A DNA stretch of 58,489 nt, taken from the IMG/VR virus record IMGVR_UViG_3300032087_004351, positions 1 through 58,489 of that record. The stretch is one strand, 5' to 3'. This document shows positions 22,761 to 39,952 of this stretch, one piece after another (within the stretch, counting starts at the first letter, position 1; each line of letters begins with the position of its first letter). The DNA comes from a virus. Its lineage: Duplodnaviria; Caudoviricetes. The notes beneath the pieces were generated by a model that had not been told where the DNA came from, did no database searches, and worked only from the letters and a program-made list of their open reading frames with translations. Made by a program: the position numbers and the translations under genes.

Positions 22761-23110
22761 ACAAGACGATAGCTGCAATAGCAATCACGTCTGGCCTCGT
22801 GGGTACTGGGGCGGTCATGAATCTGTCTGAAAAAGAAGCAGCGCCAGAGGTCACTGTAGTTCAGATCAACGCAAAATGGAACCGATACAACACACGGGAG
22901 GACCTTGAATACCTTGAAGACTGTGAGTATAGGTTCGGGTGGCTTGAAGACCAGCCATACGAGCTTAGAAGCACAATCAAGTCCGTACCCGTCGTAGTCA
23001 TCTACGACGAAGGACACCCAGCCTATCAATACGTAGCTGGAATTAGCTTAGAACTAGACACACCATTCGATACTATCCAGAATCAAGTCTGGAAAGAGCT
23101 GGATGATTAA
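22757..23110 (+). CDS. Exported protein, possible thioredoxin-like fold without CxxC
   Basis: Hydrophobic N-terminus; 'VVQINAKWN' and 'IKSVPVVVIY' patterns. Confidence 0.4.
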   Translation: MNKTIAAIAITSGLVGTGAVMNLSEKEAAPEVTVVQINAKWNRYNTREDLEYLEDCEYRFGWLEDQPYELRSTIKSVPVVVIYDEGHPAYQYVAGISLELDTPFDTIQNQVWKELDD

Positions 23111-23778
23111 CGGATCAGCATTACGTGGCCTGAAGCCACGAGCTGATCTTCGGAAGACCCCATGATCGTCCAGATGTAAACGCCCTGAGGGGCGCCAGAT
23201 CCGTCCCAGCACGATCCTTTTAGTAGATCTCCGACAAATACGATTCGGCCCCTCCTGTCGTATACCTTAAGCTCAAGGTCGTCCCAGCAATACTCGTCTA
23301 CTACAGGGCAGAAGGTTTCGTTTAACCCGTCTCCATCTGGGGTAAATGAATTGGGTACGTAGATGTCATAGTCGCATCCCACGCAAGAAGCCCCAGTAAA
23401 GCAATCAACGCTGGTTACGCTGTAAACTGTGTCTGGATCAAGCGTGATGTAGTTGACGATCTCGACGGTGTCTGCGGGTAGTTGCACGTATACCGTGTCG
23501 CATGACTCTACTGGCGGCTCAAGAACTCCGCACTTCCACGCCACCCAAGCAGCCCATATGCCATCGACACCGTGGTAGTAATCACACAAGAGCTCCCCGA
23601 CTTCGTATGGGGTCGTGCAATCAAGACAGGAGCCGTCGTCCACGGTAGCTTCGTCATTGTAGTTGCATGAGTTTGGCCACATGCACCCATAAATAACTGG
23701 CGTTTCTACATAGACCGTATCACATTGACTAACAGCGATTAACGGAACAAAGAACAGGGACAGAAGAGCTTTTTTCAT
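23107..23778 (-). CDS. Secreted Cys-rich protein with a T9SS type-B (gliding motility-associated, CHU_C-like) C-terminal domain
   Basis: Signal peptide; 'GCMWPNSCNYNDEATVDDGSC' module; C-terminal 'YVPNSFTPDGDGLNETF...VYDRRG...WDG...GVYIW...GHVMLIR'. Confidence 0.8.
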   Translation of the reverse strand: MKKALLSLFFVPLIAVSQCDTVYVETPVIYGCMWPNSCNYNDEATVDDGSCLDCTTPYEVGELLCDYYHGVDGIWAAWVAWKCGVLEPPVESCDTVYVQLPADTVEIVNYITLDPDTVYSVTSVDCFTGASCVGCDYDIYVPNSFTPDGDGLNETFCPVVDEYCWDDLELKVYDRRGRIVFVGDLLKGSCWDGSGAPQGVYIWTIMGSSEDQLVASGHVMLIR

Positions 23779-33400: not shown

Positions 33401-33585
33401 TGTAATGTTGCTTGGAAGATTGAATTGACGCAGTCAATGACTACGCTTTTGAGTTGTGGTGAAGTTTGTAAATGTTTCTTGAGTTGTCGTGTAGTTTCGG
33501 GTGCTACACGTTCGATGTGCTCTACTCGGATGCGGTAGTCCCCGTCGTATGGGTTAGCACTGAGAAGGTCGTTTACTCGTATCAT
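33397..33585 (-). CDS. Hypothetical protein
   Basis: 62 aa, ATGA-coupled to the next gene. Confidence 0.55.
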   Translation of the reverse strand: MIRVNDLLSANPYDGDYRIRVEHIERVAPETTRQLKKHLQTSPQLKSVVIDCVNSIFQATLQ

Positions 33586-33587
33586 GT

Positions 33588-33743
33588 TTAAAAGTTCTTA
33601 TGGAGGTACCCCGACAACATCAGTTGTTGTTTCACGTCTGAGGTTGGCGTCTTGAGGATTTTGCGTACACCCTCGTCTTCTGAGGCGAGCACGGGATCGA
33701 TATTGTATTGTTCGCAAAGGAACATGAAGTCATTGATTTTCAT
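33588..33743 (-). CDS. Small hypothetical protein (51 aa, not in ORF track)
   Basis: MKINDFMFLCEQYNIDPVLASEDEG...; start overlaps the stop of 33740..34387. Confidence 0.55.
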   Translation of the reverse strand: MKINDFMFLCEQYNIDPVLASEDEGVRKILKTPTSDVKQQLMLSGYLHKNF

Positions 33744-34387
33744 GATTCAAAGGTTACATTTTTGTCTAACCAATCTTTAAGGTCGTCGGCTACGTGGAAC
33801 GGGTTGTCGTAGCTATCAGACCCCTTGGGCTTGGGGATACGGAAAGCGTGCATCACGTAGTCGTCAACGTCGATGAAGGCGTGCTGGCGGTAGTACACAT
33901 CCGAGATGAAGTCCGTGAGCTGCTCAAGGTTGTTGATGGCATCTGTCGTGGTGTCCATGACATCACTTGATACACGAGCCACAAGTGACATACACAGAGG
34001 GGTGTAGTCCCATGCTTGGGTGGCTTCGAGTTGATTCCACGTCAACCAACATGACTCGGTAGACTCACCTCGGTTGGACATATCAAGCTCGATGACTTGG
34101 AATACCTCGACACTAACGTCGTCGCCATACTCTGCCACGTATTCGTCGTGGGTCATGTCTGACGGGACGCAAGCCTTGTAGTTGTCGTAGTCACGAGTCA
34201 TCGTGACGTACACCGCATCTTCGGTTGCGTGGTCGATGAGTACGCACATATCATCCTTGCGGTAGTCGTCAAGGATTTGAGCGATGTGTCTGTCTGCGAA
34301 ACCCCGCTTGGGGAAGAACTCGCAGGTGGTGTCGGAGTACCCTTCAAAGAGTCCTGCGACGGCGTGGATTACTGCATATTGTTTCAT
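33740..34387 (-). CDS. Hypothetical early protein
   Basis: 215 aa, preceded by the CAAACTTCAA leader motif. Confidence 0.65.
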   Translation of the reverse strand: MKQYAVIHAVAGLFEGYSDTTCEFFPKRGFADRHIAQILDDYRKDDMCVLIDHATEDAVYVTMTRDYDNYKACVPSDMTHDEYVAEYGDDVSVEVFQVIELDMSNRGESTESCWLTWNQLEATQAWDYTPLCMSLVARVSSDVMDTTTDAINNLEQLTDFISDVYYRQHAFIDVDDYVMHAFRIPKPKGSDSYDNPFHVADDLKDWLDKNVTFES

Positions 34388-34418
34388 GGTGTATTGAATT
34401 GAAGTTTGTAAAAATTAG

Positions 34419-34481
34419 AAGGGAGGTTGGGATTCGAACACAACTGCCATCCGTAGATGTACGCACCGACTGCGCTCCCTT
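34419..34481 (-). ncRNA. tRNA-like element lacking an anticodon loop
   Basis: AAGGGAG/CUCCCUU 7-bp outer stem; CGCA-GUCGG-UGCG arm; CAUC-UACG-GAUG arm; T-arm with GUUCGAAUC. Confidence 0.65.
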
Positions 34482-34534
34482 GATTGAGGTGGGGGTGTAG
34501 TGACGTTTCACCAAGCACCCCCGATGGTCAAACT

Positions 34535-34678
34535 TCAATCAACCAAATCCTCTTGTTCGTCTTGCCACTTGTCGTAGGCATCATCGACTGCGTTGTTCAA
34601 CGCCTCCGCCTCTGCTCGATCGATTGGTTGGCCGAACATCTCAAATATTTTCATCACTTCTTTTACAGGGTCTTTCAT
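34535..34678 (-). CDS. Small acidic protein (47 aa, not in ORF track)
   Basis: MKDPVKEVMKIFEMFG...EDLVD; ATGA-coupled to the upstream gene. Confidence 0.5.
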   Translation of the reverse strand: MKDPVKEVMKIFEMFGQPIDRAEAEALNNAVDDAYDKWQDEQEDLVD

Positions 34679-34872
34679 GCTAATTGTTTATGTGATTCCC
34701 AATAGTTAATTTCTTCGTCGTGGATGCGGAAGCTGCACGACTCTCCCATCGTGTCGTTCCACACCCTGTCTATCCACACTCCGTAGTCGTCTGGCGCTCC
34801 CATCACAACGGATGCGCTGAATCCAGATTCTTCAAGTGCTTCGACTGCGCGTTCGCACTGCTCTTGTGTCAT
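34675..34872 (-). CDS. Hypothetical early protein
   Basis: MTQEQCERAVEALEESG..., start reassigned; ATGA-coupled to a 40-aa ORF at 34869..34991. Confidence 0.55.
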   Translation of the reverse strand: MTQEQCERAVEALEESGFSASVVMGAPDDYGVWIDRVWNDTMGESCSFRIHDEEINYWESHKQLA

Positions 34873-34987
34873 TGTTCTTTCGGTTTGGTGTTGGTTAACT
34901 GCTCCGCAAGGGACTTGTTGTGCTTGATTAGTTCTGACTCTTCCATCTTGGAGAGTTCGACGATGTTGTTGAAGATGTCTTTGATGT

Positions 34988-35302
34988 TCATAGGTCAATG
35001 ATTACGCCCTTCTCTTCGAGGGCTTCGATTATATATTCAGGGAGTTCGAAGCATCCATCGTACCCCGTAAGGCGCACATCTCCGTTGTCATCCCAATAAA
35101 CTTCGAGGATGCCGCCTGCATAGAAGCGGTCACCTGACGTGTCAAGGTCGTATGTTTCGTACCATCCGCCATACTGATGGTCAGGGTCAATCCCAATAGA
35201 GGTGTCCATCTCCACGTTCAACTCTGCGTCAAGGTCTACGTCGTAGGCTGTCCGCATTGACACGAAGGGGAGTGTGCTTTTGAAGGAGTGTGTAAATTTC
35301 AT
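34988..35302 (-). CDS. Hypothetical early protein
   Basis: 104 aa with 'LTGYDGCFELP'; coupled to both neighbours. Confidence 0.6.
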   Translation of the reverse strand: MKFTHSFKSTLPFVSMRTAYDVDLDAELNVEMDTSIGIDPDHQYGGWYETYDLDTSGDRFYAGGILEVYWDDNGDVRLTGYDGCFELPEYIIEALEEKGVIIDL

Positions 35303-35529
35303 TGCTCTGAATTTTCGGCATCGTTAGCCCATTCAACAAGGGTGTCAATCACCGCATCCTTTGCGTCGTCGCTCATGAATGTGGAGTTGGAGACGAGAGA
35401 GGCCATGCCCTTCACGTCCTCGGGCACAAGCCGAGCGCACCGATTCAGGTCGTCGAGATGCTTTCCGAAGTGGAGGTCATTGAGTGCGAGCACTGCCGCA
35501 CCGACGGGGCGTTTGAAAAAGTTATCCAT
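35299..35529 (-). CDS. Hypothetical early protein
   Basis: MDNFFKRPV..., start reassigned. Confidence 0.5.
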   Translation of the reverse strand: MDNFFKRPVGAAVLALNDLHFGKHLDDLNRCARLVPEDVKGMASLVSNSTFMSDDAKDAVIDTLVEWANDAENSEQ

Positions 35530-35813: not shown

Positions 35814-35876
35814 GAGAGGTGTTGTATATATACTCTCTTCACTACGTTCAGAGAGAGTATATATACTAACACTCTC
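35814..35876 (-). repeat. Long hairpin element, copy 1
   Basis: 33-bp core 35829-35861 is identical to 37083-37115; flanked by inverted arms. Confidence 0.9.
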
Positions 35877-36206: not shown

Positions 36207-36377
36207 TTATTGATTATCAACAACCTTGAAGCTGGTTGTCTTCACGGTCTGACTTGTGCCCAGCCACTTGTTTCGAGCTAGGTCTTTAGCCAACGCAAGG
36301 TGTTCAGCGTAGATGAAGTGCTCGGTCCAATCGTCGCGGTCACGGCCTCTGTAGGTAATGTATCTGTATTTGTTCAT
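36207..36377 (-). CDS. Hypothetical early protein
   Basis: MNKYRYITYRG..., ATGA-coupled to the upstream gene. Confidence 0.55.
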   Translation of the reverse strand: MNKYRYITYRGRDRDDWTEHFIYAEHLALAKDLARNKWLGTSQTVKTTSFKVVDNQ

Positions 36378-36739
36378 TTGAGTCTGATTTCTTCGTTGTT
36401 CCAAAGGTCGTAGATGGCAATCTCGTCGCGGTCCTTGCCCAAGGCGATCGCCTCTGCGCGGTCCTGCACGATGTCAGAGAGTTCGAGGTATGCAAATCCG
36501 TCGTTGTCAACCCATCCTCCGACGAGGAGCCGAGAAGCCTTGCCTCGTGCCTGCTCACGAAGATGAGCCATGATGTCGTAGGCAAAATCGTTCCAAGACA
36601 ACCTATCTGCCTTGACCGTGTAGCACTTGGACGCTCCGCCCACTGCGAAGCCACCACCTTCGTATGTGCTCAGGTCGTGCTTGACGCTGAACCCGTCCCA
36701 TGCTTGAATCTTGAAGTATAGCTCTTGAAGTTTGTTCAT
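36374..36739 (-). CDS. Hypothetical early protein immediately downstream of the hammerhead ribozyme
   Basis: MNKLQELYF...GGWVDNDGFAYLELSD...AIYDL; ATG follows the leader motif. Confidence 0.65.
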   Translation of the reverse strand: MNKLQELYFKIQAWDGFSVKHDLSTYEGGGFAVGGASKCYTVKADRLSWNDFAYDIMAHLREQARGKASRLLVGGWVDNDGFAYLELSDIVQDRAEAIALGKDRDEIAIYDLWNNEEIRLK

Positions 36740-36758
36740 CGTAAATGAATTGAAGTTT

Positions 36759-36812
36759 GACATAGACACCACCTTCGTGGTGTTTCGCGCACTCAGCGCT
36801 CATCAGTATGCC
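36759..36812 (-). ncRNA. Hammerhead ribozyme (type I topology)
   Basis: GGCAUA-CUGAUGA-GCGC-UGAGU-GCGC-GAAA-CACCAC-GAAG-GUGGUG-UC^UAUGUC: complete catalytic core, three stems and a GUC cleavage triplet. Confidence 0.93.
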
Positions 36813-37066: not shown

Positions 37067-37129
37067 AGAGTGTCTTAGTATGTATACTCTCTTCACTACG
37101 TTCAGAGAGAGTATACATACAAGACCTCT
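37067..37129 (-). repeat. Long hairpin element, copy 2
   Basis: Same 33-bp core as copy 1; outer arms differ in sequence but still pair. Confidence 0.9.
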
Positions 37130-37876: not shown

Positions 37877-37927
37877 TGTAAATGAATTTGAAGTTTGACC
37901 TAAGGACCGACTCTCAAAATCCTTTAG

Positions 37928-37984
37928 GAGATAATAGATAGAAGAGAGAGTCATAGACTCCTCTCTCTCTTCTATCTATATCTC
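37928..37984. repeat. Long inverted repeat upstream of the first early gene
   Basis: atagatagaagagagag (37934-37950) pairs with ctctctcttctatctat (37963-37979). Confidence 0.85.
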
Positions 37985-38550
37985 TATTTCGGCAACACCT
38001 TATTCCTTTATCTAAGGATAAAGTAATAGATGAAGGGAAATCTCGGTAGTCGCAGGAAGCTAACAAGTTAGCTACGTAGGCTACTGCACTGCACACCGCT
38101 CCGCCAAGTAGATTTTGCTATTGATATTTGTATTGCTAATAGCTATGGCTATTAGAATTGTCAACACAAACTAGTTGGTTAGTGAGCAGTCAAGTTGGAG
38201 TAATACTCCAAGCCGATAGGTCGAAGGGTGTGATTGTCATTGCATTATACCTAGGACAACGTACAACTTCGTCGGAATCCATCGAGATTAAAGCATAGCT
38301 TTAATGCTTCAGTCATAAATGACTGGGTCTGAGGGTTCTAGGACAAAAAGCTACTTTAAAAAAGTAGCTCGATTGAGGGGAGGGGGGTCCGAAAACTCGT
38401 TTTCGATTAGGGGATGGTCGTCCTATATATACATATTATCCCCACCATATACATTACTCACAAATTTTTTGCGATCATGCGGATTTCGCCCAAAAATCCG
38501 CTAACTATTGCAGTCTCAATGCGTTATACGGTGCTATTAAAGTAAAACTT
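37985..38550. other. Non-coding divergence region with clustered palindromes (candidate genome end/origin)
   Basis: Strand switch point; at least seven short inverted repeats; G-rich run at about 38377-38387. Confidence 0.55.
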
Positions 38551-38998: not shown

Positions 38999-39952
38999 AT
39001 GGCAAAAGCTAGAAGAAAACTACGCAGACAGTTGATGAAGAAAGCCAAGAAAGGCTATCTGACTCCTGGTGAGCGTGAAGACTTGATGCAGCTCGACAGA
39101 GAGGTAAACAAAGCGAACAGACAGGCCGCCGCTGTAGGTGTACCTGCATTGGCTACGGCACTTGCCATAGCGTCTAAAAGCAATATGTATCAAGATTGGA
39201 GGTTTCAAAAGGATCTTGAGGAGGCGATTGAGAAGGGATTTATTAGTGTAGCTGACGATGATGAAGCTACCCCTAAAGAAGCGCCTACTGATGAAGCTAC
39301 CCCTAAAGAAACTCCTGAAGGTGTCTCTGACACCACCCCAACCGAAGGAAGTATTGATGATCAATTAAGAGGTATTCAGGAAAAAAACAATAAAAAGTTT
39401 ACTAGACCAGACTTTGTTCCTAGTAAACGTGACGAAGAGGAAGAAGATTATTTTGAAAAAGAAGCACTTCAGATACGTAGGGAGATGGATCGCTATTCGA
39501 ATTGGCCATACACGCCTGGAACTGAAGAACGACTTGGCGATATGAGCGGTGAAGAGTTAGCTCAAATGATGGCAATAAGGGAAACGGGACCGTATAATCT
39601 TCGCCCAGAAGAAGAAGATAAGTATCTTGACTATCTAGGCCTTGGTCAAGATCAGAGCAAGCCCCGCCCAACAAAAATGCAAAGGAGAATGATGAGGCGC
39701 GGATTTGATCCTGTAGAAGGTGAGTTTTATTCGAAAGAGTCTAATCCTGTTATGATTGGCTCACCTCGCCCAGAATCAAGACTAAAAGAACCCGAAATGC
39801 GTACACCTCCTTTTTCTCAAATGCGACCAGGCCAAGGAGAGGATATTATGGACCCTAACTTCGGCCAAATGCCGCAGAAAACGGGTGGGTATACACCGTT
39901 TCTCTCAAGCTTGAGAAACAAATTCCAAAAAAGACTTACAGGTAAAAGATAA
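38999..39952 (+). CDS. Hypothetical late protein, low complexity
   Basis: 317 aa; internal 22-bp duplication at 39259-39280 and 39289-39310 (DEATPKE twice). Confidence 0.6.
   Translation: MAKARRKLRRQLMKKAKKGYLTPGEREDLMQLDREVNKANRQAAAVGVPALATALAIASKSNMYQDWRFQKDLEEAIEKGFISVADDDEATPKEAPTDEATPKETPEGVSDTTPTEGSIDDQLRGIQEKNNKKFTRPDFVPSKRDEEEEDYFEKEALQIRREMDRYSNWPYTPGTEERLGDMSGEELAQMMAIRETGPYNLRPEEEDKYLDYLGLGQDQSKPRPTKMQRRMMRRGFDPVEGEFYSKESNPVMIGSPRPESRLKEPEMRTPPFSQMRPGQGEDIMDPNFGQMPQKTGGYTPFLSSLRNKFQKRLTGKR

Follow-up and report, generated by a model that had tools for sequence, protein, structure and literature searches.

An anticodon-less tRNA-like RNA family in early regions of tailed phages and its candidate role as an intercistronic processing module

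Introduction

The mammalian tRNA-like elements mascRNA (of MALAT1) and MEN-beta recruit RNase P and RNase Z, and the tRNA punctuation model applies to mitochondrial transcripts. Engineered tRNA scaffolds carry an arbitrary structured insert in place of the anticodon arm and are correctly processed and stable. A natural tRNA-like element of 63 nt is described here from the IMG/VR virus record IMGVR_UViG_3300032087_004351, a complete record of a marine tailed phage of 58,489 bp with direct terminal repeats, the whole of which is hereafter called the window. The element, at 34419..34481 on the minus strand, is a real, selected non-coding RNA belonging to a phage-restricted family of anticodon-less 'top-half' tRNA mimics. 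There is a probability of roughly one half that it serves as an intercistronic processing module, which would be cut by host RNase P and RNase Z and would release a stable tRNA-like RNA.

Hammerhead ribozymes flank phage genes and were proposed to cut long transcripts into gene-length mRNAs, and a halovirus hammerhead lies 13 nt ahead of a start codon (Perreault et al. 2011, PMC3088659). In the phage group studied here, hammerheads and the element fill the same kind of intergenic slot, directly upstream of a cistron leader, but the element contains no hammerhead core and would need host enzymes instead of self-cleavage.

Comparison with known RNA families

With the mascRNA type, the element shares a cloverleaf-like RNA, a reduced or non-decoding anticodon arm and an embedding in a longer transcript. 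If it is cleaved, its borders would also set the 3' end of the upstream RNA, with a protective structure there, and a small tRNA-like RNA would be set free. It differs from that type in being phage-encoded, in an arm that can be absent, in the missing linker between acceptor and D stems and in a 13-pair helix with a conserved mismatch, and its cleavage is only predicted here. Like the engineered scaffold, it is a tRNA frame with a replaced anticodon arm, whereas it is natural and its D region is reduced.

Canonical tRNAs (RF00005) and the element both have an acceptor stem of 7 bp, a D loop with GG, a T loop of the form UUCRANN and a discriminator position, and R1, the covariance model of the element family, weakly cross-matches the tRNA-Ile of the window. 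In contrast to tRNAs, the element lacks the anticodon arm with its 5-bp stem and 7-nt loop and bases 8-9, and its T stem has six pairs including one U x C. In the tRNA-like domain of tmRNA (RF00023), the acceptor, the T arm and a reduced D region are likewise conserved and the rest is inserted at the position of the anticodon arm; unlike tmRNA, the element carries no G3.U70 (except in the homologue locus L065; L-numbers label such loci), no tag reading frame and no pseudoknots, and gives no Rfam match to that family. As for hammerheads, neither the element nor the hairpin upstream of it contains CUGANGA, no ribozyme match was obtained between 34300 and 34600, and R2, the hammerhead covariance model, matches at 36759-36812 only. 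The element is therefore not a member of the tRNA, tmRNA or hammerhead family.

Structure of the element

On the minus strand, positions 34481..34419 read AAGGGAG CGCA-GUCGG-UGCG UA CAUC-UACG-GAUG GCA GUUGUG-UUCGAAU-CCCAAC CUCCCUU, placed in a gap of 147 nt between the stop codon of a 47-aa ORF and the ATG of a 215-aa ORF, both on that strand (Table 1). The preliminary description, made from the letters alone, had read this sequence arm by arm as a compact tRNA mimic in which a tetraloop-capped stem replaces the anticodon arm, and the reading proved exact, except that a U x C mismatch at the fifth pair of the six-pair T stem had gone unmentioned. A tRNA finder was expected to miss the element or to call it pseudo, and ARAGORN indeed makes no call at the locus and reports in the window only tRNA-Ile(UAU) and tRNA-Arg(UCU) at 46.4-46.8 kb (starts 46423 and 46727). 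Within 34300-34600, no tRNA-clan or other relevant Rfam family matches the element, either at the gathering cut-off or at E<=10. No tmRNA was called in the window by ARAGORN, nor does RF00023 match at the element.

The minimum-free-energy fold of the element is the proposed cloverleaf. In 200 shuffles, 34 fold equally well (z -0.83), and the fold of the lone sequence is not above chance. The evidence beyond chance is comparative, drawn from aligned homologues, and consists of conservation, covariation and an independent RNAalifold consensus. Considering that R1 scores 86 bits on the minus strand of the element versus 13 bits on the plus strand and that G.U pairs are present in the family alignment, the minus strand is the functional one. 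R1 also matches the genuine tRNA-Ile of the window with 18.2 bits.

Table 1. Coordinates of the tRNA-like element, its parts and neighbouring features in the window
Feature	Position	Strand	Remark
tRNA-like element, 63 nt	34419..34481	-	R1 score 86.1 bits (E 1e-20); occurs once in the window
Acceptor 5' strand	34475-34481	-	element part
D-like hairpin, 4 bp, loop GUCGG	34462-34474	-	element part
UA linker	34460-34461	-	element part
Arm CAUC-UACG-GAUG (4-bp stem, UACG loop)	34448-34459	-	element part
GCA	34445-34447	-	element part
T arm, 6 pairs including one U x C, loop UUCGAAU	34426-34444	-	element part
Acceptor 3' strand	34419-34425	-	element part
Discriminator-like C, followed by UA	34418	-	first base past the acceptor stem
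47-aa ORF, upstream	34535..34678	-	no family match
G+C-rich hairpin GGGGGUG...CACCCCC, tip UGAAACGUCA	34491..34522	-	directly upstream of the element
G-less leader UAAUUUUUACAAACUUCAAUUCAAUACACC of the next cistron	34388..34417	-	leader type common to six early cistrons
215-aa ORF, downstream	33740..34387	-	no family match; anchor of the protein-anchored sample
Leaders preceded by long inverted-repeat hairpins	37897, 37046, 35807	-	window scan
Leader preceded by a canonical minimal hammerhead	36759	-	window scan
Leader preceded by the tRNA-like element	34408	-	window scan
Leader with nothing obvious upstream	36196	-	window scan
Minimal type I hammerhead motif (CUGAUGAG / CGAAAC / GUC core, three paired stems)	36759..36812	-	R2 67.2 bits, E 2e-17

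Distribution of the family

The exact 3' 21-mer of the element, from the T loop through the acceptor 3' strand, occurs in 30 stretches of IMG/VR viral contigs, and the acceptor 5' strand AAGGGAG stands upstream in every one of them. The first 20 nt are identical in 25 of these stretches, while the five exceptions show D-loop changes only (L009, L010/L014/L018, and L008 with a 45-nt insertion). The 5' 19-mer is found in 34 viral stretches and, among the matches listed, in more than 110 metagenome stretches, including TARA contigs. At least 70 distinct sequences with the 5' half of the element are present in marine viral or metagenome contigs. The data sets listed as containing the locus (33700-35000) are DNA from seawater and marine metagenomes, with no RNA data set among them.

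A further sample was anchored on the neighbouring 215-aa protein instead of the RNA and comprised 33 loci with 49-80% amino-acid identity. R1 matches in 28 of these loci; 24 of the elements score at least 64 bits, and the other four are diverged (30-40 bits). No R1 match was obtained anywhere in the records of the remaining five loci, three of which are fragments.

Cellular genomes were represented by one genome each for 185,579 prokaryote species, in which the exact 21-mer has no match. A degenerate pattern yielded 29 matches there, none of them at an ARAGORN tRNA, and the sole family member among them (L236) lies on a 12-kb contig binned with a Parvibaculum metagenome-assembled genome (MAG); its element matches that of the viral locus L101. 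In 50,697 GenBank phage records, no match was obtained by blastn with 1.1 kb around the element or with the 71-nt element, nor by tblastn with the 215-aa protein. A 14-mer pattern of the D hairpin was too loose and gave mostly chance matches, of which R1 retained two new members, L172 and L122.

The family is absent from Rfam 15, and Rfam searches on 20 and on 14 loci of relatives assigned neither the element nor its arms to a known family. A catalogue of structured RNAs from IMG/VR mentions tRNA-like candidates (PMC10690425). No description of the element family was found in the literature including the searched part of the supplements to that catalogue, where four contig identifiers looked up were not found and where a prior listing is possible.

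Covariation and conserved bases

RNAalifold returned the same four-helix cloverleaf from a plain MAFFT alignment of 25 variants. The covariation alignment of 36 matches (30 distinct) is model-fitted and hence biased towards the structure of R1; in it, 93.8% of the cells form standard pairs versus 42-56% when the 3' partner is slid by 1-3 columns, both sides change at 11 of 21 pairs, and none of 500 shuffles attains the observed score. Compensation is visible in the raw sequences as well, both in the acceptor stem (AAAGACG/CGUCUUU in L095, AAGGGGG/CCCCCUU in L122, and G4-C replaced by A4-U in L172) and in the D stem (UGCU/AGCA in L069). These are the compensatory changes that a covariance check in related phages, suggested by the preliminary description, was meant to look for. 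Moreover, the T stem switches between GUUG/CAAC and GAGG/CCUC, the latter in at least 12 of 70 distinct variants, and the pairs at the base of the arm vary among CAUC/GAUG, CGUC/GACG, CACUC/GAGUG and CAUG/CAUG. The fifth T-stem pair, U x C in the window, is non-standard in 29 of the 30 distinct members.

Hardly any variation occurs in the acceptor stem, the GG-bearing D hairpin and the T arm, and the top half is, judging from these comparisons, under strong purifying selection. Among the matches listed, the T loop is constant at positions 1-3 and 5, has a purine at position 4 and varies at positions 6-7, giving the forms UUCGAAU, UUCGAGU, UUCGAUU, UUCAACU and UUCAAUU; almost every D-loop variant encountered retains the GG. 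A C directly follows the acceptor stem in all 70 distinct variants among the matches listed, and the bases past it vary, with CTA being the commonest. Departures from tRNA are the absence of the two-base linker between acceptor and D stems (bases 8-9), a stack of 13 acceptor/T positions and the lack of an encoded CCA. The third acceptor pair is G3-C70 in 28 of 30 distinct members, and G3.U70 occurs in L065 only.

Variation at the anticodon-arm position

Among the matches listed, the arm ranges from 0 to about 80 nt and has no constant loop; the whole element measures 49 to 130 nt in relatives. In at least seven distinct armless variants of 49 nt, three bases join the D and T hairpins directly. 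Short arms are closed by UACG in the window and by GAAA, GAGA, UUCG or GAUC elsewhere, UNCG and GNRA types among them. The same arms are found with both T-arm types, and a 33-nt piece of the L004 arm reappears outside the element in L036.

ARAGORN found no ordinary tRNA at any of 100 homologue loci (40 viral and 60 metagenome). Because no homologue is called and the whole family is anticodon-less, the element is not merely an anticodon-stripped copy of a tRNA. The earlier argument against simple decay thus holds, the core being kept while the arm is remodelled.

The long arms of L031, L311, L320 and L353 contain GAUGAG...CGAAAC (or CAAAAC), a partial likeness to the hammerhead core that lacks the CU, and they are not canonical ribozymes. 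A separate frame in L243, on the minus strand of a contig from a Bacteroidaceae MAG, has a canonical acceptor, a standard D arm and a T arm, with an insert of about 33 nt replacing the anticodon loop; it receives no ARAGORN call and may represent a further tRNA scaffold of natural origin, this time from a cellular genome of the Bacteroidota.

Intercistronic context and hammerheads

The element sits in the leftward early region of the window and, as in the mascRNA type, it is intergenic and shares the strand of the flanking genes: in all 28 protein-anchored loci with a match, it lies on the strand of the 215-aa gene. It has no recognisable promoter of its own: in only one of 33 contexts does a Bacteroidota-type promoter motif occur in the 400 nt ahead of it, and for this reason the element is normally part of the transcript of the upstream genes.

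Six early cistrons of the window open with a G-less leader CAAACUUCAA...AUG, and what stands ahead of the leader varies among long inverted-repeat hairpins (three cistrons), a hammerhead, the tRNA-like element and nothing obvious (one cistron each; Table 1). The hammerhead belongs to the same early operon as the element and is directly followed by the leader CAAACUUCAAUUCAUUUACG, with an ATG at 36739. Rfam gives a local RAGATH-1-hammerhead match of 18.1 bits, below gathering, on this motif. The ORF listed as 36374..36772 probably starts at that ATG (a 121-aa frame).

A motif-plus-pairing scan of the loci detected 23 distinct hammerheads in the phage group, including that of the window, all on the gene strand (L002, L005, L008, L009, L011, L020-L022, L026, L029, L033, L043, L047, L049, L050, L058, L060, L065 and L093; L005 has two in tandem). 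The 100% pairing of these hammerheads arises partly by construction, as the scan itself demands pairing. The leader begins at most 10 nt after the hammerhead in 20 of the 23, with the ATG about 20 nt further on; two others are followed by a second kind of anticodon-less tRNA-like RNA and one by another hammerhead-like sequence. From these motifs, the early cistrons of the phage group look like they are systematically processed by ribozymes.

The two kinds of module can be compared at one junction. In L066 and L071, the element terminates with ...CUCCCUUC, after which come UGUGUC, two small hairpins and a tRNA-like RNA of the second kind; in L073 and L093, the hammerhead end ...GGCGUC (or GUA) falls exactly there, ahead of the shared UGUGUC and what lies downstream of it. 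The hammerhead cleavage site and the RNase Z site predicted for the element therefore coincide. Where relatives lack the element, no hammerhead was found immediately ahead of the 215-aa gene.

The second tRNA-like family, with anticodon loops cut to 5 or 3 nt, is an observation in its own right (L073:740-808, L093:1641-1706, L071 at about 1215-1290 and L066 at about 2320-2400). Its members in L073 and L093, which score 38.8 and 36.2 bits and so exceed the tRNA cut-off of Rfam, have both G3.U70 and A73 and are found 36-49 nt past a hammerhead, while the copies in L066 and L071 stand in tandem after an element of the first family. The tmRNA model touches the member in L093 only, with 20.1 bits, below gathering. 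An alanine-identity reading was rejected for the element, G3.U70 being confined to L065 in its family; the second family has this pair in L073, L093 and L071, not in L066.

Processing model and alternatives

A role as an RNase P/Z processing signal, one of those named in the preliminary description, draws indirect support from the slot that the element and hammerhead ribozymes have in common. In this model, the element would be co-transcribed with the early genes on the minus strand, and host RNase P would cut at its 5' end, so that the G+C-rich hairpin would form the end of the upstream mRNA. A cut after the discriminator C, by RNase Z or an equivalent enzyme, would leave a short G-less leader on the next cistron. 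The released RNA of 63 nt would be compact, with a tRNA elbow, and may be CCA-tailed and stable. An RNA-stabilising role, also suggested at first, is compatible; since the arm varies and can be dispensed with, the element is unlikely to be a decoy for anticodon nucleases.

Several observations weigh against processing by these enzymes. The acceptor and D stems are near-invariant while the neighbouring protein is only 49-80% identical, which exceeds the needs of an RNase P/Z substrate and hints at a sequence-specific partner or a function in trans; this invariance is partly built into the pattern searches, yet the protein-anchored elements mostly retain it (24 of 28 at 64 bits or more). Recognition by RNase P is assumed rather than assured, given an acceptor/T helix of 13 pairs with a mismatch, compared with the canonical 12, and the absence of the two-base linker that joins acceptor and D stems in tRNA. 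In most relatives, the terminator-like upstream hairpin and its U-run reach base -1, and in 4 of 33 contexts the same promoter motif occurs 27-35 nt downstream of the element, which would there stand at the tail of a transcription unit and not make the next 5' end. The element is also common yet dispensable: two of the five relatives without it are near-complete (estimated 92% and 100%), and in L081 there is no intergenic region at the junction before the 215-aa gene.

A function in trans accounts for part of this. A stable tRNA mimic, maybe CCA-tailed or charged, would bind or titrate a factor recognising the acceptor and D/T elbow, such as a host tRNA-end defence enzyme, a synthetase, a translation factor or an enzyme that processes or modifies tRNA, and processing would only make the RNA. 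Not only the pairing but also the sequence of the acceptor, the D hairpin and the discriminator C is almost invariant, the arm can be lost wholly, so that the top half carries the function, and two or more such elements stand in tandem in some relatives. We consider this possible but doubtful: scans of 25 early-region proteins with Pfam and of 42 with PHROGs revealed no enzyme related to tRNA, the acceptor carries no known anticodon-independent identity marks (apart from the G3.U70 of L065; base -1 is C or A, not G), the window has one copy of the element, no promoter of its own is recognisable and the two near-complete relatives manage without it. An unlikely combination of both ideas would take the modules (hammerheads, long hairpins and a top-half tRNA that borrows host RNase P and RNase Z) as interchangeable cutters of the early polycistronic RNA and the excised, CCA-tailed element as a very stable scaffold, which would display variable hairpins while its invariant acceptor and elbow grip a specific host factor, perhaps a tRNA enzyme or a defence directed at tRNA ends.

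The element might instead remain uncleaved in cis, as a 3' stabiliser or insulator of the upstream mRNA or as a 5' structure protecting or tuning the downstream cistron, and act together with the upstream hairpin and a long-range AGUUUG/CAAACU pairing. It does lie between that hairpin and the next unit, and when folded in context it forms the cloverleaf, with the hairpin retained and 6 bp bracketing both by joining stop region and leader (z -1.99). However, a plain stabiliser needs no tRNA-specific loops (UUCRANN, GG), the equivalence with self-cleaving hammerheads points to cleavage and the consensus scan detects no terminator here, which makes this account quite improbable. The sharply different flanks on either side of an identical core, and the mixed combinations of T-arm and arm types that suggest recombination within or at the element, would fit a DNA site (a tRNA-gene-derived attachment or recombination site, a promoter or origin element, or a mosaic boundary). 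Such a site is very hard to reconcile with compensation in each of the four helices, even between acceptor strands separated by 50-120 nt, with G.U pairs that favour one strand, with the absence of the 21-mer from the species genomes and of ARAGORN tRNAs from the 29 degenerate matches, and with the lack of an integrase nearby among the Pfam-scanned early-region proteins. A decaying, functionless tRNA gene is scarcely credible; the tRNA-like architecture without an anticodon and the genuine tRNA genes elsewhere in the phage would suit it, but at least 70 variants keep an intact core around a remodelled arm, short arms bear stable tetraloops, stems are repaired by compensatory changes and no homologue is an ordinary tRNA.

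If the RNase P/Z processing reading is correct, phages would punctuate operons with a minimal tRNA mimic and host tRNA-processing enzymes, interchangeably with ribozymes, and the family would show which tRNA parts suffice for recognition, namely the acceptor, the T arm and a 13-nt D hairpin without an anticodon arm. It would constitute a widespread, apparently undescribed RNA family, with at least 70 variants in ocean viromes including TARA contigs, and would give annotation pipelines an example of a functional tRNA-like gene that escapes tRNA finders. In addition, RNA engineering in Bacteroidota could use the element as a compact module for processing or stability, and as a scaffold it would be the natural counterpart of the engineered tRNA scaffold.

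Phage, host and flanking features

The window encodes a terminase, portal, primase-helicase and ribonucleotide reductase as well as a giant virion-type protein of 3,213 aa. Its TerL is 40-47% identical to the TerL of Flavobacterium and Cellulophaga podophages. A 223-aa ORF (23107-23778, minus strand) has a C-terminal CHU_C type IX secretion signal domain (E 1.3e-10), a hallmark of Bacteroidota. Judged by these sequences, the phage is a Bacteroidota-type podophage, and its host is likely a member of the Bacteroidota. The acceptor strands, with a CCUCC-like core, could be taken for Shine-Dalgarno or anti-Shine-Dalgarno mimics, but Bacteroidota rarely use Shine-Dalgarno pairing.

In relatives, the upstream hairpin keeps its tip UGAAACGUCA while its stem covaries, and the U-run that follows it in most of them is degenerate in the window (ACCUCAAUC). 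The motif TGAAACGTCA occurs twice in the window versus 0.12 expected. A consensus scan of 33500-35500 for a hairpin with a direct U-run found no terminator-like site. The hairpin is absent in a few relatives (L060, L015 and L016). The 3' end of the 47-aa ORF and the following AGUUUGACC are conserved at the DNA level in many relatives. A reading of the hairpin as a hammerhead remnant, its tip GAAAC being followed by GUC, was discarded, there being no CUGANGA and no room for stem III.

AGUUUG (34529-34534, after the upstream stop) can pair with CAAACU (34403-34408, in the leader), with up to 9 bp in relatives. The pairing would bracket the hairpin and the element and may be incidental, since the leader motif is common. 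In L029, L043 and L049, 27-35 nt past the element, a promoter-like TTTG, 21 nt, TAnnTTTG surrounds an inverted repeat with the DnaA-box-like TTGTCCACA.

Near-perfect AU-rich inverted repeats with stems of 16-20 bp precede three early leaders on the minus strand (about 35824-35867, 37078-37120 and 37922-37994), and two of the three have the conserved loop UGAACGUAGUG. Such a module also lies downstream of the tRNA-like element in many relatives, and the repeats could be RNase III-type sites or operators. A weak hammerhead-like match at 39287-39326 on the plus strand (12.2 bits, E 0.42), with CUGAUGA and GAAAC inside a 317-aa ORF, is probably due to chance.

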